Of a stretch of DNA of 64,000 nt, positions 17,801 to 47,914 are shown piece by piece. Position 1 is the first letter of the stretch; the number at the start of each line of letters is the position of its first letter. The translations under genes were made by a program, and so were the position numbers. The notes beneath the pieces are model-generated. The model saw only the letters and a program-made list of their open reading frames with translations, was not told the DNA's origin and ran no database searches. Source of the DNA: Vairimorpha necatrix (Eukaryota); contig CP142736.1 in assembly GCA_036630325.1 (NCBI GenBank), forward strand, positions 1 to 64,000, in the 5' to 3' direction.

Positions 17801-17802
17801 TA

Positions 17803-20800
17803 TGTTATATATTTTGATAATTTTTACCCCCATTATGATAAATAAATACATGGGGGCGATACCAAATCGAGAGTCAACAAGTGATGGCTGTGGTCAAGAG
17901 GCCAGAATAATGTTACAAGAAATTAAAAGAATAGTTTATAAGCTAGAGTTGGATGGAGTAGATGAGTCTCTATGGAAGGCAAGAATTTATGAAATGGGTT
18001 CGGAAGAAGTAAAGAACTTTATGGTAGAAAGAATTAAAAAAGAAGATAGTTGGTCCTTAATTATTGAAGAAATGGAAAATGAGGTTAGAAAGGACGAATT
18101 AAAAAAGAAGGAAGAAGAAGACAAAAGTAAGATGATGGAAATAATTGCAGAGTCGGTTAGAGGAACAGTTCGAGAGGAGCTGGCAAATAGAGGAGCATTA
18201 GGAAAAATAAGGGAAGAAACTACGAGAGTAAGAAGTAGAGATTGTTTTTACTGTGGTAGATTTGGGCACATGGCAAGAGATTGCTTCGTAAGGAAGAGGA
18301 AAGAAGAAGATAATAAAAATAAACATTTTAACAAGTATTTAAGGGTTCATGAAGAGAGTGGATCTACAACCACAGAACTTAGCGCACAAGAATATAGGAA
18401 ATGCGGAGAAGCAAAACGTAAACAAAATTCAAAAAGGAGAGGAATGAGAGAGGATAGAATAGAAGAGGGCCTTGTCATTGAAGATATAAAAGCGAAGTTT
18501 AGAGAAATTTTTGACTTGCAGCAGGAAGAGATCGTACACTGTAAGATAGAGAAATGTAAAATTGAGACGCCACCAGGGAAAAAAGTAGTTAAAAGAGGAC
18601 AAACTATCCCACAGGCGTTGATGGAAAATACTGAAAAATATATAAAAAGTTTGGAAGAAAGAAAAATTATAAGAAGATCAACATCCGAGTGGAGGAACCC
18701 AATTAGAGCTATAGTAAAACCTAACGGAGGAGTAAGGCTTGTAAGTAATCTAATGAGTTTAAATGACTTAGTTGAAAAAGATCCGTATGAGTTGTCAAAT
18801 ATTAGGGACATCGTTAGAGCCACACAGGGGTCTAAATGGTTTACCGTTATAGATCTGAAGGAAGGCTTTTACCACGTAGAGATTGAAGAAGAGGATAAGC
18901 ACAAAACGGCCTTTGAATTTAACAGAAAGGTATATGAATGGAACAGTATGGTAATGGGATATAAAAATTCCCCGCAGATATTACAACGAATAATGAACCA
19001 AATATTTGAAGATTTACAAGGAGAAGGAGTGGAGGTATATATGGACGACATCGTTATACACGCTAGAACTAAAAGAAGGCATGACAAGCTAGTTATAGAA
19101 GCATTGGAAAGATTAAAAAGACATAAAATGAGATTGAATATTGAGAAGATACAGTTTAGCCAACAGTTAGTTAAGCTCTTAGGAGTCACATTGAATGGTA
19201 CAGATATTGAAGCGAATGAAATAAAGAAGAACGAGGCGTTAGAATTCCCGCAGCCGACAAGTGTAAGTGAAACACGAAGATTCCTAGGAATGACAGGATG
19301 GTTTAGGAACTTTATAAAGAATTACGCGGGATTAACTATTCATCTGACAGATAGCTTGAGAGGTAAAGATAAGAAGTGGGAATGGACGGTTGAAATGAAT
19401 AGAGAGTTTTTAGAGCTGAAAGAAGTTTTGAGAGCGATGGGGAAACTTAGATTGCCTGATTATAGGAAGGAATTTATATTGAGAACGGACGCGAGCAATG
19501 TAGGGATAGGAGCCGTGTTACTTCAGAAGAACGATAAAGATGAATGGGTAGCAATCCAATGGAGTTCAAAAAAGTTAACACCTACAGAGACCAGATATAC
19601 TATATCGGAGAAAGAAATGTACGCGGTATTTTGGGGGATAAAAAGATTTGAATACGAGTTGCGCGGTAGGAAGTTTAAAATTGAGACGGACCATAAAGCC
19701 TTGGTTGAGATTAGAAATAAACCGTGTTTTAATAACAATAGAATAAATAGATGGATTGAAAAGATCCAGGAATTTGACTTCACCATAGAATATAAGAAAC
19801 CAGAAGAAATGGTGGTGGCTGACGCGTTAAGCAGGATACATATTGAAGACGATGAAAGGAAAAAGAAAATCAGAGAAAGGACCGCCAAGCAGATAGAGGG
19901 CAAATGGAAAGCGCACGTCGATGACGCAGAAGGGAAAAAATATTGGAGATTTGATTCAGGACGGAAAGTCGAGATACCACCAGAAGAGTCAAGGGAAAGT
20001 TTGATGCAGGAATACCACGAAAAAGTTGGACATAGATGTATGACAAGTGTATATTACGCGATGCGGGAAAGATTTTATTGGCCCGGAATAAAGAAAGACA
20101 TAAATGAGACAATTCGAAAGTGTGTACAATGTCAAATATAAAATAGAAAAAGACTCGGTGGATGTGAGTTTGTAGATACTACACGTTATTTAGAAAAGGT
20201 TGCTTTGGATCTCATTGATTTTAGAGACGCAGGTAAATACGTATTGGTTGCGATAGATTATTACACTCGAAGAGTATGGGGCACGGTAATGGAGAACAAG
20301 ACTGGAAAGAATGTGACAGAATTTTTAAGTAAGTTGTGTGAACAAGGAAAAAAGCCCGAAGAGATTATAACGGATAATGGGCGAGAATTTATCAATGAGG
20401 GGTTTAGAGAGTTGTGTAACAGACTAGAAATTAAACATAGGAAAGTAAGTGTCGAATCACACAGGAGTAATGGCAGAGTCGAGAGGGTTATAGGTACGCT
20501 GCGAGAGAGCATTCTGAAGACTAAAGAAGGTACATTTGCAGAGAAGGTCATGGGAAGCATTGAAAAATATAATATGAGTTACCACACGGCACTAAAATGT
20601 ACACAATAGAAGCGACAGAGGATAAAACTGGACATGTAATGATTGAAAATAGCCCACAAGGGAAATATGGAAAACTGTTTAACAGGGGGAAAAGGGAAAA
20701 ATTTAAAGTAGGTGAGTACGTGAGAGTAGCTAAGAAGGAAAACTTAAAAGGTGCGGCTAAATATTCGAAAGGTAGGTTTTTAGAGAGTGGGGAAATTATA

Positions 20801-20976
20801 GAGAGATGTGGCAATGATTCTTATATAGTTAAGTTAGTAAATGGAAGATATGTAAAGAAAAGGCATTATGATCTAAAAAGTCTGCTTGGGTTAAGGATAA
20901 AGTGAGACTAACCGTCTTGGAGGGGGAATGTTATATATTTTGATAATTTTTACCCCCATTATGATAAATAAATACA
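17803..20976 (+). mobile_element. Ty3/Gypsy micro-LTR retrotransposon (element B, protease-less clade)
   Basis: Identical 48-bp TG..CA LTRs at 17803-17850 and 20929-20976. TSD TATTA on both sides. PBS-like TGGGGGC directly after the 5' LTR and PPT GGAGGGGGAA before the 3' LTR. Confidence 0.97.
17850..20905 (+). pseudogene. Gag(CCHC)-RT-RNaseH-integrase polyprotein of element B, disrupted by one stop and one frameshift
   Basis: CFYCGRFGHMARDC knuckle; RT IDLKEGF and YMDD; RNase H TDAS, EKE, TDH, ADALSR; integrase HHCC and DLID, TDNG, VER. In-frame TAA at 20139-20141 and a frameshift near 20603. No D[TS]G protease motif. Confidence 0.92.
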
Positions 20977-22141
20977 TATTATTTTAAAGTGAGTATTTTC
21001 CTTGTTAATTATCATGATTTGCTTCTCTTTCTTTTTACATTTGTATATATACTTGTCATCTCTGAAAAATCTAAAATTTGAATCTCTAAAATTAGAAATT
21101 ATTGCATTTTATACTAATTATTTTTTCATAATTTTCTTTTCTGTCTTATTGTATATATATATATATGTAAATAGAATTTTCCTCATTTTAAAAATGAAAA
21201 TTTCAAAACCCATAAATTAGAAATTATTGCAATTTAGACAAATAAATTTTCATGATTTTTATCAACTTCTTTTTTTTTATAAATGTGTATATATTCTTTT
21301 CATCAATGAAAAAATAAAATCAAAATTATGTCATTTTAGATAATTTCTTTTTCATGATTATCCTTATTCTTGGTGTTTGAATATATATACTTGTCATCCT
21401 TAAAATATTAGCAATTTGGAAGTTCAAAAAAAAAATTATGACTTTTAGCCTTTATATACTATAAAATTTCATATTTTTTGCGAGTAGAAGGGAAGATATA
21501 ATCTTATACATGAACTCAAAAGAAATTGAGTTAACAATCCAATTGATATGGGGTATTTCTACTCACTTAACTATTACCGAATACTTGCGCTTCACTATCT
21601 CAGACGTAACTATTTAGATTTGATGAGAATATTTTTATATACAAGCCTCTAATCGCATCATTAAATCAATAAATATATTAAAATGAAGATTTTAAAATCT
21701 CTGTATAGATTTATCAGATTAATATAATGTCTATATAAAAATAAATCATCTAGATCCCAGATGGCTCTTTCTCTTACACAGAACACTAAAAGCAAACTTA
21801 TTAAACTTTTTTGAACTAATGAAATAATTGAACAGATCTCCATTTTATACTATATCTTGTTTGAAAGAAAACAAACTTCAAAAATTTTCACATCAAGAGT
21901 GGCATAATTGGCTTTTAGATCCCTATTAAATATACAGCTATGGTATTTTGAAACACAGAAGGACAAATTATATGTAAAAAAATTTGAATGTGAATATATT
22001 TCAGAAATTACTAATCAATTCATTTCAAGAATTACTTTCAATATATTTGTTTAGTCTATCAATTTTGAAATATTATATTTAGTGACGTCTGTATGTCCGC
22101 GAGTAGATATCTTTATACTTAGAATATAATTTAAATTTTAT

Positions 22142-22210
22142 TGCCACCGGGAATCGAACTTTGGACCTTCGATATCCCAAATCAATGTGCAACCATTCTG
22201 CCAAGCACGA
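22142..22210 (-). pseudogene. tRNA-like relic (pseudo-tRNA or SINE head)
   Basis: Minus strand has an A-box-like TGGCAGAATGG, an anticodon-like stem TTGAT/ATCGA with loop TTGGGAT, and a B-box-like GTTCGATTCC. Acceptor and T stems pair poorly. Confidence 0.45.
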
Positions 22211-23757
22211 TTATTGTAATTTTTGTTATCCTTTAAGAAAACCAATTATATTTTCAACTTCCTTTAATTTTTGTTTTCTTTCTATACATAAAGAAAAATT
22301 TCAAATTAGTCAGATTGAAAGATCATTAAACGACTTAACCAAATAATAAACAATTTACAATATTAGTTCTATGCTTTCTTTTGGGAAATTAAATTATATA
22401 AGATTATCTTGATCCAAATATACCTTTCTAATATATATATACTTGTTATACTAAAAAATAATAAACATTTTACACGGCAAAAACAAGTATATGTCCTAAT
22501 TATATACAAAATACTTTCATATGTGACCGCACATTTTAAGATTTAGTGGCATCGTATTTCAATCTCTCCATTATATCTGGTAATTTTGTTATTCTTATTT
22601 TCCATACCCTCTAAAGTAAATTTTTTTAAATAATTTTTTCAACAAGTTAAAACTGTCATTTGTAAGAATATGATTGGTAAGTGTTTTTTCTTTTCTACAA
22701 CTTTATATGAACTACATTCTTTTAAGAATTTTAACTAAAAAATAATAAAAACATATTTATGTGATTTAACTAATATTCTTTATTGAGATTTTGTTTTTTC
22801 TTAGATACTGTGATGTACATTTTTACTACACATGAACAGAAGTCAAAAATATGTCAACCGTTTCGGATGGCATGTCAAGTTGGGTCACACAATAAAACGA
22901 AAGTTGCATGGTCGTTACTACATTCGTAAGTACGCCATTGTTTTTTTAGTGTTGACAACATATATAAGATTTATTGAGTTAATTTATCATGTAAGTTAGA
23001 TCAGCAAAGTTTCCCCCGGTATCGCTCACTAGATTCGGCTCTTCATAGACTTTGGGTTTCGTGGAATTATTTATGTTTTCCAAATTCACTTTTTCAGCTT
23101 CATTCCCATTTGCCGACATTGCTTGTTCAACATTCTTCATATTTGCAATTGCGCTTGAAGCTCTAGTTACTTCTTCTCCTGCATAATCTTTATCGTATCT
23201 TGTTCGTCGTTCCAAAGACATGGACTCTAAAGTTTTCTTCATCACATTAGACGGGATGTATGCTTCCAGAAATGTTTAGATTTCTGCAGAATGCAAATAA
23301 GATTTTAAAATATTAATATAAATGTACACAATAATAATATAGTTTAGAAATAATGAATTCTTAAACTTTTAAAATTTTACAAATGTAACTATTATTTTGG
23401 AAAAAATATTTTATTTTGACATTACGATTGATTTTTAGTAAAAAATTAATTAAATTTTTAATTTCTTCAAAAATGTCAGAGAATTTAAAAAATTTAAAGG
23501 CCGTATTAAATTTCAAAAAATATTATCTGGTCATCTTTTTAATAAAAGTTGTTACTCTGTAATCAAAGAAAAATTAGTAATAAATTTCAAATAAAGATCA
23601 TTGAATAAAGAGTAAATAACATATTTGTTTAGTTTTTAATTGTATATTTTTAATTAATTTATTACAAAAATTTGTTTTATTTTTGCTATTAAATCTTTTG
23701 AATTCAAAATCTACGCTCTTTTCTATATTTTGTTTATTTTATATTTCCCTCCTAAAA

Positions 23758-26359
23758 TCATATATATAAAAGAATTTTATTTAATTTTTTACCCCTCTTT
23801 TTTGTGGTTTTGAAATTTTTAAACTATATATATTAGGCTTTCTATGTTATTTAAATGTCAAATATAGATTTATGGCGTTTATTTTACTATTCTAAGTGTG
23901 TATGTTATTAGTTAATACTTTTTAATTTTAATTATTATTTTTGTTAAACTCGGTTCCAAAATATCGTCAGAATCGTTTTTTAGAATTTATTTGACCCTTC
24001 CACGAAAAATTATAAAAAGATTTAACCAATAATGATTTTGAATAAAAGTGTTAAAAATTGAGCTTTAGGAGTTTTCAAAATTATTTCAATGAGACTCATA
24101 AGTGTTTTTAACTCAACTTTACTCCTTATATGTTACTAAAAAGTATTTTTGAAAATCATGTCTAAACTCTGTCAAATATAATCATCTAAAATGGAAACTA
24201 AACAAAATTAAAAGAAAAATACATATTAAAAAAACTAAACATTAAGATCCCGTTTTCAAAACGGGAAAGCATACGCTAGTCATATATATAAAAGAATTTT
24301 ATTTAATTTTTTACCCCTCTTTTTTGTGATTTTGAAATTTCTAAACGATACATTTTGAGCCTTTTACGTTAATATAATATCATATGTAGATTTAATGTTT
24401 TAATTTGATAATTGTAAGTGCGTATACTTTATATTAATGGATTTTTATTTTTATTATTATTTTTGTTAAACTCAGTTCCAAAATATCGTCAGAATCGTTT
24501 TTTAGAATTTATTTAACCCTTCTAGAAAAAATTCACAAAAACATGTACCAAAAAAAAAAACAGCATAAAAGTGTTAAAATTGAGTTTAGAAGTTCCCGAA
24601 ATTATTTCAATATGACTCAAAAGTGTTTTTAACTCAACTTTACTCCTAATATGTTACTAAAAAGTATTTTTGAAAAAGATGATTTCATCCTATCAAATTC
24701 AATCATCCCAAAATGTAAACTCAAAAAAATTCAAGGATCAAAGACATATTAAAAAACTAAACATTTCGATCCCGTTTTCAAAACGGGAAAGCGTACGCTA
24801 GTCATATATAAAAAGAATTTAATTTAATTTTTTACCCCTCTTTTTTGTGGTTTTAAAAATTTTAAACTTCTAATTATAGCTTATTGTGTTATTAAAATTG
24901 TGTTTTCGAATTTAATGCTTTCGTTTGATTATCGTAAGTGCGTATACTATATATTAATGCATTTTTATTTTAATTCTTTGTTTTGTAAAACTCAGTTCCA
25001 AAATATCGTCAGAATCGTTTTTTAGAATTTATTTAACCCTTCTAGAAAAAATTCACAAAAATAATAACCAAAAAAAAATAGAATAAAAGTGTCAAAAATT
25101 GAGCTTATAAGTTTCCCAAAATTATCTCATTATATTTATTAATTATTTTTAGCTCAACTTTACTCCTTATATGTTAAAAAAAAGTATTTTTTAAAATCAT
25201 GTCTTTACCCTGTCAAATTCAATCAGCCCCAAATGGAAACTTTAAAAAATACCGAGACGGGACATATTATAAAACAAACACATTTATCCCGTTTTCAAAA
25301 CGGGAAAGCATACGCTAGTCATATATATAAAAGAATTTTATTTAATTTTTTACCCCTCTTTTTTTGTGGTTTTAAAAATTCTAAACTTCTTATTTTCTCC
25401 TTATTGTGTCATTGGAATATCAAAATTAAACTCAGTGCTTAAATTTGATAATTGTAAGTGCGTATACTATATATTAATGCATTTTGATTTTAATTTTTTG
25501 TTTTGTAAAACTCAGTTCCAAAATATCGTCAGAATCGTTTTTTAGAATTTATTTGACCCTTCCACGAAAATTTGTAAAAACATTTAACCAATAATGATTT
25601 TGATGATAAGTGTCAAAAACTAAGCTTAAGAAGTTCCCAAAATTATCTTATTGAGATTATTAAATGTTTTAAAACAACACTACTCCTCATATGTTACTAA
25701 AAAGTATTTTTGAAAAATCATGTCTAAACTCTGTCAAATTCAATTATCCAAAATGGAAACTTTACAAAATTTAAGGATGAAAGACATATTAAAAAACTAA
25801 ACATTTAGATCCCGTTTTCAAAACGGGAAAGCATACGCTAGTCATATATATAAAAGAATTTTATTTAATTTTTTACCCCTCTTTTTTTGTCAATTTGAAA
25901 TTTCCACGCTATATATTTTAGGCTTTCTATATTTATTAAATATCAAATATAGATTTATTGCTTTAATTTGACTATTCTAAGTGTGTATGTTAATAGTTAT
26001 TACTTTTTTATTTTGATTATTATTCTTGTAAAACTCAGTTCCAAAATTTCGTCAGAATCGTTTTTTAGAATTTATTTAACCCTTCCGCGAAAAATTGTAA
26101 AAACATTTAACCAATGATGATTTTAAAGATAAAGGTCAAAAGCTGAGCTTTAAGAGTTTTAAACATATCTTATCAAGATTCATAAGTGTTTTCAACTTCA
26201 TTTTACTGTTCAAATGTTCATAAAAAGTGGTTTTAAAACATAACATCTCCTTTTCAAATTCCATCTTCCTAAAGTGGAAATTGAAAAAAGATAAAGGAGG
26301 TACATATTATAAAACAAAACATTCAAATCCCGTTTTCAAAACGGGAAAGCATACGCTAG
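23758..26359 (+). mobile_element. Head-to-tail array of five ~520-bp non-autonomous Helitrons
   Basis: Units 23758-24279, 24280-24801, 24802-25318, 25319-25841 and 25842-26359. Each starts TCATATATA and ends with hairpin CCCGTTTTCAAAACGGG, a short spacer and CTAG. The array sits between A (23757) and T (26360) with no TSD. Confidence 0.9.
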
Positions 26360-27115
26360 TAGTACATAATAAATTTCCAACGGGATGCAATCGATTCAGG
26401 ACATCGTAAAGATGCAATAATACAAGCATAAAAAACCGCTATAATTTTGTGTTGTAAGTAAAGCTAAGCTGTTATGAGAAAACATGGGGTTTTTTATTTA
26501 CGGACTTTAATGTCCAAATGTCACATGTCAAATATCTTGTGTCGAATGTCATTTTTTAAATAATTGGATGACATTTGATATGTTATACTTTCAACATTTG
26601 CATTCAAAAGATCTAAAAAGATGTTCTATCTGTCTATTCGACTTATGGATAAAGAATCATAATTATTTATTCGTATTTCTGTAGAAACCCCTGTCAAATA
26701 TCATCCTCATATCTATTAAATGATATTTGACACGGATTATAAATTAAGTAAAACACTAAAATCATGTCTTTAACCTCCGCTTTGAGAACACGTACAAAAA
26801 ATTTTGATAATAATTTTTACACTGATTCTTTAATCAAATGAAAATTTTTTCAACTTTTACTTCAAGTCTAGAATAGTTATTGGCTAAAGTGCACTTTGGC
26901 CGAGAAATTTCTATATTGTTCTTTTACAATTTTCTGCAAAAAAATTTGAAAAATTATTGACAGCCATTAAGATTTGTACAACCCAAATGAGATTTTTGAA
27001 ATGTTAAGTAAAAAACTTCGATAATTTATTTTCAGTTAATTCTAACATTTCTTTCAAATTAGAATTTTTTTAAATTTTTAAAACAATATAAATACTAATT
27101 TTATTTTTGCCCCTA

Positions 27116-31399: not shown

Positions 31400-32070
31400 T
31401 TTCTACTAATAAAGCAGCCATAGATTTCTTATAGAAAGCAATATGTCTGAAATGTTCTGAGAGTATGGTTTTATACACGATGTTACGTATTGTAACAATT
31501 TTCGACAAAGATGTTTAACTTGGTGTGTATAAAAATAAAACAGTTTTGGAGGTCTAAAAAACCAAATCAAAGTAGACATATGCGACTACATAATTATAAT
31601 GTCTTCGTGGCAAGAAAAAAAATTTTGAATATAATACAGATAGAAATTTTATTGTGAATTAAATACTAATGAAACTAAAAAGTACAATAATAGGAGTAAT
31701 ATCTGAATACAATAAAACAACATGAAGGAAATAAGGTCCTGATCACCCCATACAAGTGGATGAGAGTGTTATAATCAAAGGAAACTTATAAAATCACCTC
31801 CAGAAATGTATGATTCGCTCAGTAAATCTACTTAGATAATTGGTGAGTTGAAAAAACGTAAAAGCTTCTACCTTAAGTTATACCTAATGATAAAAAAGAA
31901 TTTTTCCCAGCCTGTTTACTAAAAACAAATACTCCAGGTCTGTTTTATAACTGTTGGGCTCAGATCTTACTCATACGCTGTTGCTGAAATTGTAAAGAAC
32001 ATAAAATCGTGAAGCATGAAAAAGGATTTTCCATTGCTGATGGAATTACACTAATTTACAAGAATGAAGT
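31400..32070 (+). pseudogene. Merlin (IS1595/ISXO2-like) DDE transposase relic
   Basis: Ordered motifs: AAIDFL..CLKC (about 31411-31460), GPDHPIQVDES (31735-31767), ITVGLRSY (TDG..SY equivalent, 31947-31970), and HKIVKHEKGFSIADG followed by TN (32000-32060). Multiple frameshifts. Confidence 0.75.
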
Positions 32071-35400: not shown

Positions 35401-37138
35401 TTCATTATATTTGTTTTGCGTAATTAAAATATTCTATATATCTTAAATTTTCTCATACGATAATAAACGACAAATTCGTTTTTATTGCAGATTTTGGTTT
35501 GTTAATAATGTTTGAAAAAATATATATAATCATAATAAATATGTAATTTGTTAAAAACATTTAGCTAGAACATCATAGTGTCACTTAGGACAATTGAAAA
35601 AAAATGAAAGTTGCATTACAATTTCTGCTAATGTAAATTTTTTTACTAAGTCTTTATCTTTAAGAATTTTGTAAAAATGTTCCATGCTTTTAAAATTATT
35701 TTTTGTTTTGTTTTTTTGATTTAAAAGTGTTAGTTTCATTGTTCATTTTAATTTTTGCTTATTATAATGTATACCTTAAAAAATAGTGCTAGTTTAATAT
35801 ATAATTGATTTAAAAAAAAATTTGGATATTTGATCTTTGTTTTTTTTTCAATATGATTTATGCAAACTCATATGACAAGATTTGTTGTATAAAATTCTAT
35901 GATGTAAAATTATTACAAATGTAATTGCTCACTACAAAATCAGTCTCTAATTTCTTAAATCTTAATAAGAAAGGGGCATAAAGAGAAATTTTCCTTTAAC
36001 ACATTAGCAGTAAATATAAAATTTCTCGTTTGTGTTTTTGTAATTTATTACTTGCCTCATATTTTTTTTCATAGATGATTTTAATACACTACGTCTTAAC
36101 TATAATCTATGTATTAATTATAATGTATGAACACAAACTCTTCCACACTTTGATATTATCCTTATAATATAAATCATATAAAAGCACAATTGAATTAATA
36201 TTTGAAAAATCTAAAAACATTACAACTTCTCTTTCATTTAGATTATATTGTCAACTGTAGATTTATTTTTTGTGAGAGGTAAAACCATTTCTACTTATAC
36301 TAATAACAGTTTCAAATGTATCTCAGACATTTCATATGTTACTACTTATCTTTAAAAATTCGCATATATAGCCATTTATTAATTAGTAAATAAGCATCAA
36401 AACACATATAAGACCCTATATAGCTTTTCATAGCATTGTTATTTAACTTTTCGTATTGCAGATGCTTATTTTCGACAAAGTCAAACTTCATATTTTATTA
36501 GATATTAGTATAGAGTAAACTATCCTCATATATAAAATTACAATATACTAAATTAAAGGTCATTCCAACGCCTTGGTTTTTATTGTCATTTATAGGTTAA
36601 TTTAAATGATTATATGTCCGTTTTATTATTATATAAAGATATAAATGTTATATCCGGATGAGAAAGTGGTAAAACTAAAATTTAATTTCAATTGATCATA
36701 ATTTTAGCTTAGAATTATAAAGTAAGTAACTAATCTTAATATATTTGTCTTGTGATATATATTTTATTGTATTTTTTCATTCTTATTAACCCATATACCA
36801 TTTTAATAAAACTTTTAATATAGAAATCTAAAATATTAATATCTAACGAAGAATATGATCTGTTATCGTCTAGTCCCGAGTTTTTTAAAATTTTGGTTGT
36901 ATATATGACTCGCGCGATATATTGTTTTAAAACATAACATGAATAATTTTTCCAGATCAAAAACATTTTAGATCAAGGTATAAAATTCTAGTATATAACA
37001 CACAAAAACTTTATAAACGTATATAAACTGTAAGAAAAAAAAATTTAAAATCATTTCGAGACATAAAGTTATGCTTTTATAGTATGTTTATAGTTCTAGT
37101 ATTATTTATTTATATTGTATTTTACAATTATTCTTTTC

Positions 37139-40100
37139 TGTAGGGTTTAGAACCCTTAATAAATAAATGGTTAACATGGCGAACACAAGGATGAACAGGG
37201 AAACAAGAGAGTCCCGTAGTCAAGAGGCTAGAACATTAGAGAAAGAGGCAATTAGGATAGATAAGAGACTAAAGTTAATATTGTTAGTTGAAATTTGAGT
37301 GGAAAGATGTTATGGATTTGGCATCTGCGAACTTGCAGGATTATATTTTTGAAAATTTTTGTGACGGAAGGAGCAGTTGGGAGGAAATTTATAAAGGCTT
37401 ACAAAAAGGAGCAGAATTTGAGAGAGAGTCAGAAGAAAGACAAGAAATGATTAAAGAGATTATGGATAAAGTGTTGAAAGAGTTTAGGGAAGAAAGAAAA
37501 GAAAATCTTAGGATGTATAGGAAAAGAAGAGAAATCAGAGAAACTACAAAATGTTTTATATGTAAGAAAGAAGGGCATTACGCTAGAGAATGTCATGAAA
37601 GTGTAGCTGGTAGGGAAAAATATAAAATTAAAAAGGAACAAGTTTTACAGAAAGAACCAATTATCAACAATGAAGGGAAAAGATGTAAAACAGTAAATAA
37701 GTTAGAAAATTTAATTGAAAAGTATCCGGAAGTTTTTAAAGAATCAGAAGAAAAGATAAAATATCTCACAGGAGAGAAGTGTCCAATAAATACTAAGCAA
37801 GGTGAAAAGGTTGTGAAAAGAGGGCAGAATGTGCCATACTACCTTAGGGTGAAATTTGAGGAGTACTTGAATAAGTTGGAAAATAGAGGGGTTATAAGAC
37901 GTTCCAAAAGTGAGTGGAGGAGTCCAATAAGAGCACTTGAAAAACCAAATGGGGACGTAAGATTGGTAAGCAATTTGATGGCGTTAAACGATTTGGTTGA
38001 CAAGGACCCGTACTCACTACCGTTAATTAAGGATATTATGAGAGCCACGCAGGGGTCAAAAGTATTTACGGTTATCGACTTAAAAGAAGGGTTTTATCAT
38101 ATTGAGATTGAGGAGCACCATAAGCACAAAACAGCATTTGAAGTGAATGGTCGAGTATACGAATGGAATAGTATGGTTATGGGGTTTAAGAATTCGCCTC
38201 ATATAATGCAGAGAGTAATGAACAGAGTTTTAGATGAATTCAGAGGTAAAGGCGTGGAAGTATATATGGATGATATAGTTATTCATGGTAAAGACGTAAG
38301 AGTGCATGACGAGTTACTAGAGAGGGTAATTAAAAAGTTTAAAGAGTGTGGGTTGAGAATAAACCAAACAAAGATACAATACAAAAAAGATGAGGTGATG
38401 TTGCTGGGAGTAACAATTAATGGGGAGGTCATGGGACCGAATGAGATTAAAAAGCAGGAGACATTGGAATATAGAAAACCTGAGAATGTTAGAGAGTTAA
38501 GAAGATTTTTAGGACTAACTGGTTGGTTTAGAGACTTTATTCCCAACTATGCGTATAGAACAGTAAGGCTTACTGAGGCTTTAAAGAAAGATGTTAAATG
38601 GAATTGGACGGAGGATATGGAAAGAGCTTTTGAGGATATGAAGCAAGGCTTGAGAGATATGAAAAAGTTGAAGATTCCGGACGGAAAAAAGCTATTTAGA
38701 GTAAGAACTGATGCGTGTGATACGGGGATCGGAGCAATTCTATTACAAGAAAATAAAGAGGGTGAGTGGATTCCGATACAATGGGCATCGAAAATGTTGA
38801 CTCCTACCGAGCGAAGATATACGATAAGTGAGAAGGAGATGTTGGCGGTGTTTTTTGGAATAAAGAAGTTTGAAAGTGATTTGAGAGGAAGGAAATTTCA
38901 TTTGATGACGGATCATAAAGCATTAGCAGAGATCAGAAATAAGCCATACTTCAATAATAACAGAATAAACAGATGGGTAGAACAGATACAAGAGTTTGAC
39001 TTTACAATAGAGTATGTGAAAGGGGAGTTGATGACAGATGCAGATGCGTTAAGCAGGCAGTATGATCAGGTAGAAGTTTCGGATGAACAAAAAGAAAAGG
39101 ACAACAAGAGAAAAGAAGTGATCGAAAAACAAATTTTGGGAAAAAAGCAGAAACATATTAAAGAAAAGGACGGTAAACAGTATTGGGAATTTTCCACAGG
39201 TGAGGTGAAAGAGATATTGAGCCTAGATAGTAGAGAACATGAAATAACAAGAGTACATGAGGAGTTAAACCATAGAGGTGTCAAAGGCACTTATTATAAC
39301 ATTAAACAAAGATGGTATTGGCCTGGTATGAAAGATCATATTAATAAGGTAATTAAGAATTGTGAAATATGTGGGATTAACAATAGGAAAAACACAGGAG
39401 GATGTGATTTCGTAGTAACTAGAAAGAAATTGGAGAAAGTGGCGTTGGATTTAATGGACATAGGTGGAGAGAATAGGTATGTGTTACTGGGTATTGATTA
39501 CTTTACTAGAAGGTTGTGGGGTTCGAATTTGAGATGTAAAGAGAGTAGTGAAGTTATAGAGGTATTACAAAAGTGGAAAAGGGAAGATGGATTTCCAGAG
39601 GAATATGTGACAGACAACGGAAAAGAGTTTGTAAGTAATAGATTTAAAGAATGGTGTAGTATTAATGATATTAAACATAGGAAAGTGGGCTTAGAAGCTC
39701 ATAGGAGTAATGGTAGAATCGAGAGATGCATCAGAACTATAAGAGAGACATTGATAAAGCAAAATGATGGGAATATTTCTGAAAAGATAGAAAGAGCAAT
39801 CAAAGGATATAATAATACACTACATACAGCAATAAAATGTACGCCGATGGAAGCGTGGAGAGATCAAACTGCTGAAGTTATAATTGAAAATGATGAAAAT
39901 GGAAAATATGCTGGTCGGTTCAAGAGAAGACACAGAGAGACATTTACAGTAGGCCAAGAGGTAAGAATCGCTAGGAGAGAAAATTTAGGTACACGTGCGA
40001 AAACAGACAAGGGAAGATTCACGGGTCGCGGAAGGATCGTAGCTATAAGTGAAAATGATTCATATATTGTGAGACTACTGGATGGTAAAATTGTTAAAAA

Positions 40101-40211
40101 GAGGCATTATGATTTGAAAGAGATAAGGAAGAGTTGTTTAGAAGATGGAGAGACTACCCGTCTGGAGGGGGGATGTAGGGTTTAGAACCCTTAATAAATA
40201 AATGGTTAACA
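37139..40211 (+). mobile_element. Ty3/Gypsy micro-LTR retrotransposon (element C, protease-less clade)
   Basis: Identical 38-bp LTRs TGTAGGGTTTAGAACCCTTAATAAATAAATGGTTAACA at 37139-37176 and 40174-40211. PBS-like TGGCGAAC and PPT GGAGGGGGGA. Flanks TTTTC and TAAAA do not form a TSD. Confidence 0.97.
37176..40185 (+). CDS. Gag(CCHC)-RT-RNaseH-integrase polyprotein of element C, with one frame change near 37287
   Basis: The 965-codon frame 37288-40185 carries CFICKKEGHYAREC, YMDD, TDAC/TDH, HHCC and DDE. The upstream frame from ATG 37176 (MANTR..QEARTLEKE) aligns with the element B N-terminus (QEARIMLQE). The stop lies inside the 3' LTR. Confidence 0.88.
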
Positions 40212-41402
40212 TAAAATATTGTTAGTAATTTCTCGTTATATATTACCTCAGAAAGTTTCAGCTCACGAAAACTGAATCGTGAAGAGATCGTGGTTGTTAA
40301 AACCGAGAATGCACCTACCCCAAACAAAAGAATTTTAATAGATCAACAGAAATTTAGGTAAATAGCAATAGAAAGAATTACAGAAACTTCCATTGTAAAT
40401 GCTTGAACGAACGAAGTATTAGTCGAACCGTTGAAACTAGATTATTTTACAAAAAAAATTAATTTTTAAATTTAAGTTCTATAATTATTATTTTTTTACA
40501 TAAATTAAATATATGTATTTTTTAAAAATAATAATTAGCATAAGAATTTATGAGCTCTAAATTTTTATTTTTGTTTTTGGATTCTTGCATTAAAAACCCA
40601 TCATAGGAAATATTAGGTCTCTTTTTATATAAATATAAGTACATTTATTGTTTTACAAAGGCAAGCATATTTTTTACATAAAGACAGTTTACTTGTTGAA
40701 AGTTTTATATCTATCTGAACTCATTCGATGCCTAAGCTTCAACTAAAATTTATAATAAATGTTTGTTTTAAGCTGCCTGTAGTATTTTCGATTAAAAAAA
40801 AGGTAATTTGAAATATCAATATGTACATACATCGATTTCATATTTATTTAAAAAAATTACAAAAAAAATAAAGTTTTAGAATACATGCAGACTTTAGTTG
40901 TTCTATGTTGATAAGGTAATTGTTTATGAACAATATAATTAACTATAATCATACATTTAAAAAAAAAAATATTTTCTAGATATTTGCTTCAGTTGTATTT
41001 ATGATAAAAGCCTTTTATAATAAATATACACATGTAGACTTTTTTATAATATGTTTTATATTTTTTCTACAGAATTTGATCCATAAAGCATTTTGTGTAT
41101 ATAGAAACAATTGAAAAATTAGAAAAATGCTTTACGTATTTAAATTTTTAGTTTTTAATGTTTCCTTGATCTATAAGTTCCGACTGATCTCTACATTTTC
41201 AAAATAAATTTTATAAGTTTTCGTGGCATGAACAATCTACTGTTATATTCTATGTTGAACTACGCTTAGATCTTTTTGTGTTTATTATTTTTATTATGCC
41301 TCAATCGGAACCCCCAAACCCATAGTAAATTTTTATATACATCTACAGAAACATTTACTATTTACAAAATATATTTTTTTTACATGACAGTAAATTCCTA
41401 TT

Positions 41403-42078
41403 GGTACATGACCGTTTGGAACCCGCTTTAGGAAAATAACCCCGCATTGGGGAAATGAACCCGGTTTGAAATTTTAAAGAAACTCCCCTTTTTAAGAAAA
41501 TGGCAAAATTGGCAAAAACTAATTTTGTTGAGGCAGATGAGGTTTTTAATGATGAATTGATTTATACATGGAATATAATAAAAGGTTTATTTTGGAAACA
41601 TTTGATGCTGAATCGGCGTGCGCCTTGCTCGTTTCTGTAACTAGTAGAAATACTGCTTTTTCCTTGAGGTAATACAAGAAAATGTATAATCTCTTTCTAT
41701 TATGATTGCTAATCAATGAATAGCATATGATGCCACATTATCTAAGCAAAGGGATGGAGCACAGTACTAAGAATCACTCTATAAATGCTGTAGCCTCTAG
41801 CGATTCCGAGTCACCATCCGTCATATAATTTAGTTGGTTTGGGCTCATTTCTATAAGAGATATTCGTTCTAGATATAAACAAAGAAGAACACTATGAGTA
41901 CCTTTTACAGTTCCACTGAGTTTTCCAAATTCCCAAAAATCACCGGATAAATTGTCTTCTGTCATTATTTAAAATATATCATCAAGTCCCTTTTTTTATA
42001 ATTTTTTTTATTTTTCCCTTTTTTGAATTTTTCAAAGCGGGTTCATTTTTTAAAGCGGGTTCCAAAAGGTCATGTACC
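41403..42078. mobile_element. Non-autonomous TIR DNA transposon (MITE), Merlin-like
   Basis: 28-bp TIRs GGTACATGACC(G/T)TTTGGAACCCGCTTTA with one mismatch. Perfect 8-bp TSD TTCCTATT at 41395-41402 and 42079-42086. Subterminal GAACCCG repeats. GG termini with an 8-bp TSD fit Merlin, but the superfamily call is tentative. Confidence 0.88.
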
Positions 42079-43249
42079 TTCCTATTTGATTTTACTCAAT
42101 TTCATTAATTTTATGCGTACTGTGCTAATTATATTGTAACTAAATTACCATAGGGATTATTCTCTTGTCTATAATAGAACATGTATTAGCTAAATCAAAT
42201 TGAAAGGGTATGTTTATAATTGGTTTTTGTGAATTCATCGTAAGCAACTCACCATAAGCAATTAACCAAAAATTAAAATATGATTTTTTAGGGATATCCA
42301 TTCTAATAATATTCAACTGCTATACTATGCAATATATATTTAATCCATACATAATCAAATTTAAATTAAATATATATAATGGATATTCCTAAGAGAAATT
42401 AATATTTTGATTTTTCGATGAATTGATTTAGGTCAATTGCTATTCGGCGAATTCTCAGGACACCTTTTTTATTCTTGAGATATTAGGACGAATTTCGGGA
42501 TTGCTCTCATAACCCCCTCAATTTAGCTTATGGTTTCTGTGGTATCATTTATACTGCGTAGCTCCAAATTGGTGGTCATCCTGTTTTGAAACCTAACTCT
42601 TGACCAGTTGACTTCTTGATCGCTGCACACACGTTTTTAACCACTTCAAACTTTACCAAATACGTCTGGTTGTATTTTCAGCTTAATGATAACGATAAAC
42701 TTAGAATCACTGGATTATAAAATAGGTGTATATATAGAGAAATAATTAAATTCCGATTATCTGATGCTTTTTAATATAGTATATAACAACATACATTCGA
42801 TTAATTATCTATATTTTTATGTATATCAAAAAGATAACAATATCGAGGATAATACAATATAACCTAATTATTAAATGTGCTTTATCTATCTGATAGATTA
42901 GCTAAGTTCATAGAATCATTTTTTTAAGGTTGTACTAAACATTGTTGTTTTTAAAGGGTTGGATAAAGGTATTGAAGACCGGAGAGGAATCGCCAAATAA
43001 TTATTTTTTGATACTAAACACAAAAAAAAAATGAGCACAGGAAATTTACACGTAATGAATTTCTTTGTGTTGAAAAGAGTAGATGAGTTGTACAAAATTG
43101 TATGTTTATTAAAAAAAGTTTCCTTTTATATTTATGTATGAAACAATGATTGTGAAAATATGTTGGATTAGACCTGCTTGTGATGGAACAGTTTGAGTTC
43201 CGGAGAAAACAATGATTGGAAATAAAAGTTAACATTTATAAATTTTTAA

Positions 43250-43367
43250 AATTACAGCACCTTGCTTTTCCGAGCGGTCTCCCATCTCAGTACTCACAAG
43301 GCTCTTACTGGCTTAACTTCGGAGAGCTGACGAGTTCCGGTGCTTTACAGTAGATATGGCCGTAATT
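43250..43367 (-). rRNA. 5S ribosomal RNA
   Basis: Minus strand reads ATTACGGCCATATCTAC..GAACTCGTCAGCTCTCCGAAGTTAAGC..AGTACTGAGATGGGAGACC..GGTGCTGTAAT. Ends pair and a T-run follows. Resembles microsporidian 5S rRNA as recalled. Confidence 0.95.
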
Positions 43368-44369
43368 GTTAAATTTAAAAATTTAAATTCAGTAAATGTT
43401 GTTATGATTGATGTTAAACATCTGCTTGTGTAATATACTGAAAGTAATTTTAATAGTTTACATTTGATTATATAATTTAAATTTTTTAAGATCAAAGATC
43501 AAGGTATAATATGTAAACACACATTGTTATTATGCAATTTTTGCTCAGATTAGAACCCAGAACGGAAGCATATATACAGTCAAGAGTCCTTAAAATGACT
43601 TTAGAAAGCCTAACTATGTCAGCCAGACATGGGCTTGATACAGATCAGGAAGAGGTCTTCGAGAGCCTAATGAGTAAATCTCAGAAGGAAGCCTGGAACT
43701 GCCAGATGAGACTGTAAGCGTATCTTGTGAAAAGTAATTAATAAGTCGAATATTATACCCAAATAAAAAATTTAATTTATTGTGCAATTTTTAAAGTACT
43801 AGAAAAATTTCTTTTAAAAAAGAACAAATTATAATTTAATAAGATTTCATAAGGCCATTCCTATCAATTTTTGATTGACTTTTATAAGCTTGAGCATTGT
43901 TATACATAACATAATAAAGTATGACTTAAGAAGCAAATGAACACAATAGTATAAGGCCATCTAAATCATTCCACATTTTATTACGACTGATGTCATTTGA
44001 CCTAAGATCACTTTTTTCTATTACTATCGTATATATTTGCTTATTTAAAAATAGTTGGCTTTTTAGTAATTTACGAACTATTTCTATATTTTCTTTTGAA
44101 CTTACATGTTAATAAAGACATTATTTTTTCTACCTGTATATATCAAAGAGGATAATTAACTTTGTAAAATTTTAAAACAAAAATTAATAGGGAAAGTATG
44201 AGCCTATTGAAAGTAAACAACCCGTTTAGAGATTATTTTGTTTTAATAATAAACTAATTAATTGTTAAAGCTCAATTCACATCAATGGTAATATTGTCCT
44301 TTTAAAACCATATTTCGATCTATTCTGTTCCACTCTACACTAACTTTTTATTTTCAGTTTAAATATAGT

Positions 44370-47300
44370 TGTCGTATCCTTCTATAAATATTATATATTT
44401 TCACCCCCATGCAATTCGTAAATAAAGGAACATTCGACATGGCGACAGCGATAAAAACTGTTGGCTGCTTCAGTGGAAAGAAGGAAGAGGATATAAATAC
44501 ATGGTTGCGTGACACAACGTTCACGGCGAGGGTTATGGGACTGACAGAAGATCAGACCGCCAGACTTATCTGCCTGGGTCTACGGGGGCCAGCTCTCTCA
44601 TGGATAGCAATGGCATTTGAACGGGTGTCAGAACTTGATCTGGCAGAGGTTACTAAGAGTCTAAAATTGAGATTTTACAGTTCACAGAAAACTCTGGCCA
44701 CTCTAGACGAGTTTGTTAAACCGCAACAATTTGGCAACCTAGAGGCTTTCATAGACTTCTGCAGGAAAGGAAACTCACTTATAGAGCAACAAACAATGGA
44801 GTACAAAGCAGTCAGCCTCATAGTAATCAAGAAGTCTCCTTCGGTCCTCAAATCAATTCTTTATGATTTTGCTAGACAATGCCAAGATTGGAGTGAATTC
44901 CTGAGGCGCACAGAGGAAGTTTCTTGGATAGCATTCCCTATGAAAAGTAACACGACTAATACGGACGAGACACTAGATAACAGGACTTTGAAGGTCGCAC
45001 CATCGAAGAAGGGAAATATACCCTACACCATAGAAAACTACAAGATCAACAGCTGTTTCACTAATCCTTGCTACATAAACGTAGAATTCAATCGTAAACG
45101 ACATCGAGCATTAATTGATACCGGAGCTGATGTCTCCCTGATACCCGCAAGAGTCCTCGAAGGGACAAATATCAGATTTACCAGATCTTCAACGATCATA
45201 CGAGCAGCATCAGGGACACCATTGGAGATTACAGGAAGATGTCTAAATATCAATTTTAGGAAGGAAAACACTTCAATTACTTTCAGCCCTTACGTCACAG
45301 AACGGACACCGGACTACATAATCTTAGGAGTTGACGCTATACGAACGAACCCCATATTACTGGAACAACTGATCAGAAAATTCGCCAATACAGTCAAGAA
45401 AGGCTCACTGATTAACAAAGTCAATTACATCTCAATCGAAGAGAAATACCATGACATGTTCAAAACTGAAATTTCAGAGCTTACACTTTGTAACATGGGG
45501 AAACATCAAATCGAGACAACAGTAGCGAAGGCAATTTACCAGAAAAATGGAAAGATCCCTCTGCACTTTGAAGAGGAAATCACACAACAGATCAAGAAGA
45601 ACTTGCAGTTGGGCGTAATAAGAAATAGTAGGAGCCCCTGGAACAGTAGAGTTGTTCCGGTAACGAAACCTGATGGGTCGATCAGGCTCTGTATAGATTA
45701 CAGAGAGCTCAACAAGATAACAGTCAAAGATAAATACCCCCTCCCACGAATTGATGAAATTCTCGACGATCTAGCTGACGCTACTATCTTTTCGACATTA
45801 GATGCTACGTCGGGATATTATCAGATAGCCCTTGAAGAAGTAGACAAGGAGAAGACAGCATTCAGCTGGAGAGGAGGACATTATGAATTTAACAGGATGC
45901 CGTTTGGGCTATGTAATGCCCCTGCTACTTTTCAGAGAACTATGGATAAGATTTTTGTGAAAGAAAACAGAAAATTCGTCATACCATACTTGGATGACAT
46001 TATTATCTATTCTAAAAATCACCAGGAACACCGTGAACACTTGGAAATCGTATTGGGTAAGCTTAAGGCAGCAGGAATCGCACTTAACAGAAAGAAGTGC
46101 CACTTCTTCAAAGAAGAAATTAAAATTCTAGGGAATATAGTAACAAACAAGACGATCAAACCGGACCCAGAGAAGGTCAAAGCCATAAACGAGTATAAGG
46201 AGCCGACGAATGTTGCTCAACTACGGTCGTTTCTTGGGCTCATAAATTACTGTAGGGAGTTCATCCGTAACTTATCAGCGATAGCAGCCCCTCTCTACGA
46301 ACTGTTTAAAGGAGAGTCAAAGCGAAGTGTTAAGAGTATTTCTCTCAGCAAAAAGGAGAAACGGGCGTTCGAAGATCTAAAGAGACTTCTCACAGAAGAG
46401 ACAATAAGATACAAGATTAATCTCAGGAAACCGTTTATATTGACTACGGATGCGTCAGAGCAGGGAATAGGCGCGATCCTCTCACAGATTGGAGATGATG
46501 GGAAGGAGCACTTCGTAAGTGCATTCAGCAAAAGTTTAGAGAAAGCCCATAAGAACTACTCTACAACAGACAAAGAACTCTTGGCCGTTGTAAAAGGCAT
46601 CGAGAACTATAGACACTACCTCCTGGGTAGAGAGTTCATATTGAAGACGGACCACAAAGCGCTGACTTATCTATGGGAAGCTAAGAATCCTACCAGTAGA
46701 TTGCTGAGGTGGGCAATGAAGTTGCAGGAGTATGCATTTCAATCAACCTACATAAAAGGAGAGGTTAATGGAGCAGACGGGTTAAGCAGACAAAACCCGA
46801 CAGAGAAAGATATAAATATCATCGAAGCTACAGGACCAAGCGATGAAGACAGACAGAAGATCTTAGAATCCTACCATCTAGACGTTGGACATGCTAGCGC
46901 TAGTACGATGAGCTTCATGATTTCACAAAGGTACAAATGGGCAGGAATGCATAAGGACATCAAGGAACACGTAGAAAAGTGTAAAACGTGCTTGAAATCG
47001 GGATACCCATTACGAAACACAAAAAACAAAGTTATACGATCAGAAAGGCCGAACCAAATATGGGGGATAGATCTCATAGGACGCATATGCGACACTTCGG
47101 GTCAAAACAGCTTCATATTCATTGCTATTGACCACTACTCTAAATGGGTCGAGACGGCTGTTATTAACTATAAAACAGGGTCGAAAATAATGGGATTAAT
47201 CCAGCAATTGATTATCGAGAAACACGGCATTCCAGAAAGAATCTTGACTGACAACGGGCTAGAATTTATAAATTCTGACATCAAAGACCTGGCCGAAAAG

Positions 47301-47914
47301 AACGGTATTGACTGGCAATACAGTTCACCAGAACATCACGAAACTGTAGGCGCAGTAGAAAGAGCGAATCAGACGTTAATGAAGATACTAAATAAAATTA
47401 CAGATTTCGGAAGGGTAAGCTGGAAGAACAAGCTTCCAGAAGCCACGAGATGCCTCAACCTGTCTTATAATCGGAGCATAGGAACATCGCCGTTCATGTT
47501 AAGGGAGAATAAATTGCCGATGCTGTCTGTAGACAAAGCGCTAGACAAGGAAGAAGTGACATTCTCAGCGGAGGAAACGAAGAGTAAGCGCGATGAAAAC
47601 TTCGAAAAGTACAAAAAAGCAATCGTGAAAGGGAAAGTAGAGGTGGCGAAAAAGCTAAACGTGGGCGATAAAGTTTTAATATATCGTGAGACTAAAAGCG
47701 GGAAGTTCAAGTGCAATTGGGAAGATGGATACGTGATCACAGAAATAATTTTACCCGATGCCTATGTGGTAAAAAAGAATGGAAAAGTATACAGGCTTAA
47801 CAAAACACGAGTTAAAGCAGATACTTCAATTTAGGGGGGAGAGGTGTCGTATCCTTCTATAAATATTATATATTTTCACCCCCATGCAATTCGTAAATAA
47901 AGGAACATTCGACA
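44370..47914 (+). mobile_element. Intact Ty3/Gypsy micro-LTR retrotransposon (element D, protease-containing lineage)
   Basis: Identical 70-bp LTRs at 44370-44439 and 47845-47914 (TGTCG..CGACA). TSD ATAGT on both sides. PBS-like TGGCGACAGC and PPT AGGGGGGAGAGG. Confidence 0.98.
44409..47834 (+). CDS. Single-ORF Gag-PR-RT-RNaseH-integrase polyprotein of element D (1141 aa; alternative start 44439)
   Basis: Capsid-like FSG..W..LRGPALSW; protease ALIDTGADVS; RT RLCIDYRELN, MPFGL and YLDD; RNase H TDAS and TDH; integrase HHCC, IDL, TDNG and VER. No CCHC knuckle and no chromodomain. Confidence 0.97.
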   Translation: MQFVNKGTFDMATAIKTVGCFSGKKEEDINTWLRDTTFTARVMGLTEDQTARLICLGLRGPALSWIAMAFERVSELDLAEVTKSLKLRFYSSQKTLATLDEFVKPQQFGNLEAFIDFCRKGNSLIEQQTMEYKAVSLIVIKKSPSVLKSILYDFARQCQDWSEFLRRTEEVSWIAFPMKSNTTNTDETLDNRTLKVAPSKKGNIPYTIENYKINSCFTNPCYINVEFNRKRHRALIDTGADVSLIPARVLEGTNIRFTRSSTIIRAASGTPLEITGRCLNINFRKENTSITFSPYVTERTPDYIILGVDAIRTNPILLEQLIRKFANTVKKGSLINKVNYISIEEKYHDMFKTEISELTLCNMGKHQIETTVAKAIYQKNGKIPLHFEEEITQQIKKNLQLGVIRNSRSPWNSRVVPVTKPDGSIRLCIDYRELNKITVKDKYPLPRIDEILDDLADATIFSTLDATSGYYQIALEEVDKEKTAFSWRGGHYEFNRMPFGLCNAPATFQRTMDKIFVKENRKFVIPYLDDIIIYSKNHQEHREHLEIVLGKLKAAGIALNRKKCHFFKEEIKILGNIVTNKTIKPDPEKVKAINEYKEPTNVAQLRSFLGLINYCREFIRNLSAIAAPLYELFKGESKRSVKSISLSKKEKRAFEDLKRLLTEETIRYKINLRKPFILTTDASEQGIGAILSQIGDDGKEHFVSAFSKSLEKAHKNYSTTDKELLAVVKGIENYRHYLLGREFILKTDHKALTYLWEAKNPTSRLLRWAMKLQEYAFQSTYIKGEVNGADGLSRQNPTEKDINIIEATGPSDEDRQKILESYHLDVGHASASTMSFMISQRYKWAGMHKDIKEHVEKCKTCLKSGYPLRNTKNKVIRSERPNQIWGIDLIGRICDTSGQNSFIFIAIDHYSKWVETAVINYKTGSKIMGLIQQLIIEKHGIPERILTDNGLEFINSDIKDLAEKNGIDWQYSSPEHHETVGAVERANQTLMKILNKITDFGRVSWKNKLPEATRCLNLSYNRSIGTSPFMLRENKLPMLSVDKALDKEEVTFSAEETKSKRDENFEKYKKAIVKGKVEVAKKLNVGDKVLIYRETKSGKFKCNWEDGYVITEIILPDAYVVKKNGKVYRLNKTRVKADTSI

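Follow-up and report, generated by a model that had tools for sequence, protein, structure and literature searches.

How short can the long terminal repeats (LTRs) of a retrotransposon be? The question is raised by four elements, labeled here A, B, C, and D, in the first 64,000 nucleotides of a Vairimorpha necatrix contig (GenBank assembly GCA_036630325.1, contig CP142736.1, positions 1 to 64,000 of the forward strand). This whole stretch is referred to as the window. The four elements are genuine Ty3/gypsy (Metaviridae-type) LTR retrotransposons, and their LTRs are 38 to 70 bp long. Each LTR is probably a complete unit, with the unique 3', repeat, and unique 5' regions (U3, R, and U5) compressed into the tiny gene-control format of the host.

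The elements are 3.07 to 3.55 kb in length, with LTRs of 38/39 bp (A), 48 bp (B), 38 bp (C), and 70 bp (D). An earlier note on this DNA had described TG..CA direct repeats, an adjacent TGG, and a purine tract in all four, and each of these features was recovered at the positions given below. A repeat search of the window returned three exact direct-repeat pairs, 3.0 to 3.5 kb apart, each flanking a frame that encodes reverse transcriptase (RT) through integrase. These are the LTRs of B, C, and D, and the two copies within each pair are identical, as had been claimed. When the window was searched with each of these LTRs, allowing up to 3 mismatches, two matches were found for each, compared with none in 100 shuffles. 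The LTR pair of A matches in 35 of 39 aligned columns. TGG lies directly 3' of the 5' LTR in four of four elements, and the 3' LTR is preceded by 9 to 12 purines in four of four, a polypurine tract. The 5-bp target site duplications (TSDs) noted for three of the elements are also present (TTATA for A, TATTA for B, and ATAGT for D); the chance of a single 5-bp match is 0.0031 at host base composition. Identical LTRs of this length date poorly, as the note had cautioned: zero differences bound divergence only to less than 7.6% for 38 nt, 6.1% for 48 nt, and 4.2% for 70 nt.

Element A (2656 to 5815, minus strand) is 3160 bp in length and is a decayed copy of the lineage without a protease match described below. 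Its 5' LTR (5778 to 5815) is 38 nucleotides long and its 3' LTR (2656 to 2694) is 39, both on the minus strand. The TTATA duplication occupies 2651 to 2655 and 5816 to 5820. On the minus strand, the TGG-led putative primer site lies at 5764 to 5777 and the purine tract at 2695 to 2703.

Element B (17,803 to 20,976, plus strand) is 3174 bp in length. Its 48-nucleotide 5' LTR (17,803 to 17,850) contains a run of C at LTR positions 25 to 29, an in-frame ATG at position 33, and AATAAA at positions 39 to 44. The TGG-led primer-binding-like site (17,851 to 17,863) is translated, and an ATG at 17,850 straddles the end of the LTR. The purine tract (20,919 to 20,928) and the 3' LTR (20,929 to 20,976) follow on the same strand. 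The TATTA duplication occupies 17,798 to 17,802 and 20,977 to 20,981.

Element C (37,139 to 40,211, plus strand) is 3073 bp in length. Its 38-nucleotide 5' LTR (37,139 to 37,176) has CCC at positions 15 to 17, AATAAA at positions 20 and 24, and an in-frame ATG at position 29. The TGG-led primer-binding-like site (37,177 to 37,190) is translated as M-A-N-T. The purine tract lies at 40,164 to 40,173 and the 3' LTR at 40,174 to 40,211; the stop codon of the C open reading frame (ORF) is at 40,183 to 40,185, inside this 3' LTR, all on the plus strand.

Element D (44,370 to 47,914, plus strand) is the longest at 3545 bp. Its 70-nucleotide 5' LTR (44,370 to 44,439) contains TATAAA at position 14, a run of C at positions 35 to 39, ATG at position 40, and AATAAA at positions 52 to 57. 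The primer-binding-like site of 12 nucleotides (44,440 to 44,451) is translated as M-A-T-A. The purine tract (47,833 to 47,844) and 3' LTR (47,845 to 47,914) lie on the same strand, and the ATAGT duplication is at 44,365 to 44,369 and 47,915 to 47,919.

The coding content places the elements in the gypsy group and sorts them into two lineages. Elements B, C, and D have the Pfam domains RVT_1, RT_RNaseH, Integrase_H2C2, and rve, in that order. Pfam also matched a CCHC knuckle in B and C and an aspartic protease (gag-asp_proteas, RVP) in D only. No protease match was obtained for B and C with Pfam, a result that does not include a fold search. Likewise, the 49 relatives closest to C (38 to 84% identity) have no protease family among their precomputed Pfam assignments. 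A protease family is present in relatives of no more than 30% identity. At the protein level, A, B, and C are 48 to 57% identical to one another and approximately 29% identical to D (A matches C by tblastn in pieces, at 48 to 57%), so A, B, and C form one lineage of three families and D represents a second. The two lineages counted in the earlier note are thus supported by protein identity; one is 3.1 kb in size without a protease match (A, B, C), and the other is 3.5 kb with protease (D).

The state of the reading frames differs among the copies. Element D has one intact ORF of 1141 amino acids (44,409 to 47,834) with protease, RT, RNase H, and integrase, and this polyprotein is 99% identical to an 1141-amino-acid protein named from Vairimorpha necatrix. 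Element B encodes gag (CCHC), RT, RNase H, and integrase, with an in-frame stop at 20,139 to 20,141 and a frame change near 20,600. In C, a 965-amino-acid ORF is out of frame with the start codon carried by the LTR due to a 2-base indel near 37,289. The longest open stretch of A is at most 88 amino acids. All four elements had been called complete; this holds for their structure, and for coding capacity it holds for D only. From the first in-frame ATG in the 5' LTR to the stop codon, the frame spans 97 to 98% of B, C, and D, since the primer site and the purine tract are both translated.

The first alternative to be weighed is that the short repeats are the surviving cores of longer LTRs that have decayed or been mis-assembled. 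The imperfect pair of A (35 of 39 columns) would fit this, and the telomere tract of the window suggests a long-read assembly with small errors. Directly outside the repeats, the two sides match at 0 to 3 of 10 bases and at 6 to 11 of 40, which is the level of chance, and the bases adjoining the repeats belong to a reading frame that is common to relatives.

The empty site of C also bears on this question. Contigs of four public sequencing runs of DNA type (X1 to X4) were compared with positions 36,501 to 48,500 of the window. In X1 (depth 8.59) and X2 (depth 173), which come from two studies, one contig each joins 37,139 to 40,211 and skips 3071 bases. These junction contigs are the C site without C, and their breakpoints lie at most one base from the TG and from the CA. 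No solo LTR is left at the empty site in either contig. Of the element itself, the contigs retain just one base from each end, a pattern unlike the usual footprint of an integrase.

The elements belong to families with several copies, and the C family in X1 is consistent with the same ends. Two contigs of the C family have depths of 60.6 and 65.3, compared with 8.59 for the flank, and they end inside the LTRs at 37,159 and 40,202, which is expected if the copies share nothing beyond the LTR. Compared with the window copy, they differ by four letters and two gaps (37,159 to 38,567) and by three letters (38,538 to 40,202); the flank contig differs from the window by 37 letters and 27 gaps over 788 bases. 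The majority form in both X1 and X2 differs from the C copy of the window by the 2-base indel near 37,289, and by frame arithmetic this difference puts the LTR-borne ATG and the 965-amino-acid ORF in one frame. Depth along C in X2 is uneven, with 1228 at 37,226 to 37,608, 61 to 143 in the middle, and 465 at 39,622 to 40,191. This suggests many truncated copies or a component in X2 that is not DNA.

An X1 contig also crosses a junction of D. It runs through 47,702 to 47,844 and then continues directly with 44,370 to 45,547, going back 3475 bases, and 70 bases fit both sides. These shared bases give independent support for the LTR length of 70 nucleotides. The contig has a depth of 14, compared with approximately 8.6 for single-copy flank, and its order is purine tract, one LTR, and primer site. 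It could be a circle with one LTR, a tandem pair, or a path taken by the assembler through a repeat.

Loss of identity outside the repeats, the empty site of C, and the short LTRs of relatives agree that the repeats are full LTRs, as had been proposed, and not cores. An element from another sample, L081, has the same short form. We give the explanation by longer LTRs almost no credence.

Relatives from other samples keep the same short-LTR layout. Among the relatives of C are proteins named from Nosema granulosis, V. necatrix, and Enteropsectra breve, and 26 of the 49 closest lie on contigs of 3.02 to 3.29 kb, which is the length of a single element. When prokaryote genome contigs were scanned with a D-lineage alignment, microsporidian-type elements turned up in a bacterial bin of 4 Mb, G001, where 26 matches to a microsporidian-type retroelement protein lie on short contigs. 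Eukaryotic mobile elements have in this way been sorted into prokaryote bins and labeled as bacterial proteins (in G001, loci L081, L082, and L160 to L177).

Two of these loci belong with D. L081 shares 65% identity with D. Its two LTRs, of 75 nucleotides each, are identical and follow the order of D: TGTCGTA, an AT-rich stretch, CCC, ATG, AATAAA, and a ..ACA end. Its primer site matches that of D at 11 of 12 bases. L082 is 51% identical to D, with LTRs of approximately 187 nucleotides that are 90 to 96% alike, and its primer site shares 17 identical bases with D. When the LTRs of D, L081, and L082 are aligned, the first 7 nucleotides, a TATA-like box, the run of C with ATG and CAA, the AATAAA, and the ACA end are all kept. 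The TATA-like box lies approximately 26 nucleotides upstream of the ATG in all three. The main difference of the L082 LTR is approximately 115 extra upstream bases.

Two other loci belong with C. L160, at 69% identity to C, continues after the same purine tract with a 38-nucleotide stretch and then with unrelated AT-rich DNA. Of the 38 columns, 23 are invariant with the LTRs of C and A; the 5' copy of L160 falls outside its contig. L161 shares 41% identity with C, and its TG..CA repeats, identical to each other and 58 nucleotides long, are followed by TGG. Two further loci, L083 and L085, lie on cut contigs and for that reason show no terminal repeats. Repeats at the extreme ends of L163 (117 nucleotides) and L167 (139 nucleotides) were rejected as LTRs, as they look like assembler overlap.

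Protein relatives repeat the same arrangement at the element ends. Met-Ala is found at the junction of LTR and primer site in 26 of 31 full-length relatives of D (leaders of 0 to 22 amino acids) and in 21 of 30 relatives of B and C (leaders of 0 to 8 amino acids). M-G-A is kept at the B junction in relatives, and the MANT of C recurs in 5 of 30. In several relatives the protein closes with the peptide of the purine tract plus 2 to 8 residues, which corresponds to reading into the 3' LTR. A separate scan of metagenomes with an alignment of B and C gave 80 loci at 24 to 34% identity, which are generic gypsy elements. Self-BLAST of these loci with 2.5-kb flanks found repeat pairs 2 to 9 kb apart in none of 79, and one pair (50 nucleotides, 84%) at locus L032.

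What the LTRs contain can next be considered. The earlier note reduced each one to an AT-rich stretch or hairpin, a run of C, and AATAAA. A run of C lies 0 to 11 nucleotides upstream of an in-frame ATG in B, C, and D. Runs of C with an ATG within 15 nucleotides and an AATAAA within 30 nucleotides were counted among 217 C-runs of host DNA, and this layout was found in 1 of the 217, whereas each of the families B, C, and D has it. Both B and D contain CCCCC, a motif with a frequency of 0.0001 per position in host DNA. The LTR of A has only CC.CC and no run of three. The run of C and the AATAAA were upheld for B, C, and D, and the hairpin was rejected as no better than chance: of 200 shuffles, 78 folded as well as the 6-bp hairpin of C, 161 as well as that of B, and 66 as well as that of D, and the 5' LTR of A had no hairpin.

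The run of C has a counterpart in host genes. In the window, it lies 0 to 5 nucleotides upstream of the ATG in the host ORFs at 62,777, 51,280 (minus strand), and 27,670. Cornman et al. (2009; PMC2685015) describe, in their treatment of start codons, an enrichment of CCC at positions -10 to -3 in two microsporidia.

The proposed working of the LTR follows this order. The LTR would begin with a few terminal bases that serve integrase. A TATA-like stretch approximately 26 nucleotides before the ATG may act as promoter in the D lineage, while in B the stretch before the run of C is simply AT-rich. The run of C would act as it does before microsporidian start codons, and since it is of the host start-codon type, transcription would begin beside the first ATG, inside the LTR. 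In the 3' copy, AATAAA would provide the signal for polyadenylation. The same hexamer would double as Asn-Lys codons in B and D. R plus U5 would then occupy the distance from the run of C to the LTR end, 19 nucleotides in B, 21 in C, and 31 in D, which is the maximum for both together. First-strand transfer would take place on approximately that homology.

A second explanation accepts the LTRs as real and denies them a promoter of their own. RNA would start in the flank or at the first base of the LTR, the whole LTR would serve as R, and the layout would be a by-product of coding. The 14 to 34 nucleotides before the run of C leave very little room for a promoter, three of the four copies lie in a gene-poor subtelomere, and the proposed RNA ends are deduced from the sequence. 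Against this, the run of C is upstream of the first ATG and is therefore not coding, and the spacing of the TATA-like box and the run of C to the ATG is constant across LTRs of 70, 75, and 187 nucleotides. Host genes carry the same motif of C, and read-through starts would not regenerate defined ends. We regard an LTR without its own promoter as unlikely.

The primer site raises a third explanation, in which priming does not use the 3' end of a host transfer RNA (tRNA). The TGG would come from the context of an ATGG start codon, and the element would prime itself or use another primer. The primer sites of the families of the B/C lineage have only 4 bases in common. The site of B implies a C at the discriminator position of the tRNA, and C at that position is unusual in eukaryotes. 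On the other side, D, L081, and L082 keep 11 to 17 identical site bases, synonymous positions included, at 51 to 65% protein identity. Two elements of Anncaliia algerae, retro L and retro S, represent two lineages in one host and by eye share the first 8 bases after the LTR. We consider priming by something other than a tRNA to be rather improbable, and the TGG-led sites are treated here as putative and primer-binding-like. A search for the primer itself found no tRNA genes within the window, and ARAGORN found no tRNA at 15 retroelement loci. A tRNA search of G001 gave 76 matches in operon-like arrays, which are read as bacterial, and the complement of any primer site was found in none of 28 tRNA loci of this bin (the site of L082 equals that of D).

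The reading of each LTR as a complete U3-R-U5 unit in the format of a host gene remains the one we favor, and several points weigh against it. Element C has no target duplication at its flanks, and at L161 neither a TSD nor an adjacent purine tract was found around the 58-nucleotide repeats. Families of the B/C lineage share only TGGC or TGGG at the primer site. AATAAA by itself is frequent in this DNA, at a chance of 0.13 to 0.22 per LTR. The hexamer ends 4 nucleotides before the LTR end in B and 9 nucleotides before it in C (range 4 to 13 nucleotides), so that cleavage may fall at or beyond the LTR end and U5 may be nil. The borders of U3, R, and U5 and the 20 to 30 nucleotides of strong-stop DNA are read from sequence geometry. 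Only one of the four copies is intact.

A bolder form of the same reading is possible, although we lean against it. At 38 bp, an LTR would still function as a full unit, and LTRs of its class could in practice be no shorter. Approximately 14 to 17 nucleotides would serve integrase and promoter, approximately 21 nucleotides would form R, and U5 would be close to nil. It would contain the start codon and the poly(A) signal, joined in C by the stop codon, and strong-stop DNA would be approximately 20 nucleotides. If this is true, the clean ends of C without a TSD, at a site that is empty in two data sets, would mean that cDNA of this kind can also enter the genome without the usual integrase reaction.

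The surroundings of the elements are AT-rich, with a G+C content of approximately 23% outside of them. The first 2.5 kb or so of the window is telomere repeat, irregular TTAGG/TAGG, which makes this region a subtelomere. In this tract (1 to 2490), units of 5 bases (TTAGG) and 4 bases (TAGG) are irregularly mixed, and the strand shown is the C-rich one. Five host ORFs of at least 120 amino acids lie outside the elements, in addition to a HECT-domain gene that is truncated by the end of the window.

Other repeats are also present in the window. Positions 23,709 to 26,373 hold five tandem copies of a unit of approximately 520 bp (61 to 94% alike), each with a small perfect palindrome, CCCGTTTTCAAAACGGG. 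A 5S ribosomal RNA gene lies between C and D at 43,249 to 43,367 on the minus strand (Rfam, 96 bits), with very high X2 depth. At approximately 41,404 to 42,080 there is a 0.68-kb element with terminal inverted repeats of approximately 28 bp. X2 depth over this element reaches 18,800, and contigs of X2, X3, and X4 have loose ends at 41,403. It looks like a high-copy DNA transposon similar to a miniature inverted-repeat transposable element. A direct repeat of 95 nucleotides (43,586 to 43,680 and 55,410 to 55,504) is 75% alike and spaced 11.8 kb apart. The decayed RT fragment of a further gypsy-type element lies at 59,198 to 60,216 on the minus strand. It is 24 to 39% identical to C and D, and no LTRs were found around it.

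LTRs of this size are easily overlooked. The earlier note had stated that LTR finders default to a 100-bp minimum, and a literature listing gives 180 papers in which "minlenltr 100" occurs together with LTRharvest. At that minimum, whole families will be missed in microsporidian genomes and in bacterial bins that hold such contigs, and the repeat content and recent activity of these parasites will thus be under-counted. The elements show how short the ends of an LTR retrotransposon can be and how a mobile element may adopt the miniature gene-control format of its host. They are also a natural test of the shortest R for strand transfer.

In print, the closest parallels are in Anncaliia algerae, a different species. 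Table S1 of Parisot et al. (2014; PMC4202319) lists retro L with a 50-bp LTR, an ORF at 32 to 3049, and a total of 3127 bp, and retro S with a 45-bp LTR and a total of 3806 bp. LTRs of 73 bp are given for CK and of 90 bp for BU, and those of the remaining complete LTR consensus elements measure 105 to 272 bp. Nearly all of the complete consensus elements tabulated have an ORF that begins within the LTR. The main text, in which "LTR" occurs 22 times and "protease" does not occur, gives no LTR lengths. The earlier note had held that published LTRs below 50 bp for these families would remove the novelty, and the 45- and 50-bp entries of the table count partly against it on that ground. This short-LTR kind is catalogued but undiscussed, and the elements described here are further members. 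At 38 bp, the LTRs of A and C fall below the 45-bp minimum among the LTR rows of Table S1, and this length is the shortest among the print and data compared here.

The likeness to these two elements extends beyond size. The 38- to 70-bp LTRs and 3.07- to 3.55-kb elements of the window fit the class of retro L and retro S in that table (LTRs of approximately 50 bp or less for retro L and under 80 bp for retro S, elements of 3.1 to 3.8 kb), and the ORF that starts at nucleotide 32 in retro L corresponds to starts at LTR positions 33 (B), 29 (C), and 40 (D). Compared by eye, with no alignment program, retro L is like B and starts TGTTATATATT. It has AATAAA, then CCC directly before the ATG, and it ends ..GTTAACA before TGGCG as in C. 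Compared in the same way, retro S is like D: it starts TGTCG, its Gag start resembles that of D, and approximately 78 nucleotides, not the listed 45, precede TGGCG. By eye, retro L and retro S appear to be the same two lineages as B/C and D.

Listings of titles returned no paper that discusses such short LTRs in microsporidia, no account of the LTRs of Vairimorpha necatrix, and no title on LTR annotation in microsporidia for LTRharvest. Those listed for the shortest LTRs concern plants, mouse, and bats. The available portion of the genome paper of Microsporidia sp. MB does not mention LTR length. Nbr1 to Nbr8 of Nosema bombycis (Xu et al. 2006, as cited in PMC2685015) are also microsporidian Ty3/gypsy elements, from the same Nosema/Vairimorpha group.

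Two better-known systems frame the comparison. The elements share with Ty3 of Saccharomyces cerevisiae and with gypsy the order of RT, RNase H, and integrase, the TG..CA ends, the 5-bp TSD, a putative primer site, and the purine tract. In Ty3 the LTRs are approximately 340 bp long, gag and pol lie in separate frames that overlap, and a protease is encoded. The LTRs of the window measure 38 to 70 bp, a single frame begins within the 5' LTR (in C it also closes within the 3' LTR), and no protease is seen in A, B, or C. Among retroviruses, R is approximately 15 nucleotides in mouse mammary tumor virus and 21 in Rous sarcoma virus, and first-strand transfer in both works with 15 to 21 nucleotides of terminal homology. 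This is the range proposed here, and the 19 to 31 nucleotides available would therefore be short but within reach. The LTRs of these viruses are hundreds of bases long with a large U3 and U5, whereas here the whole LTR is 38 to 70 nucleotides.

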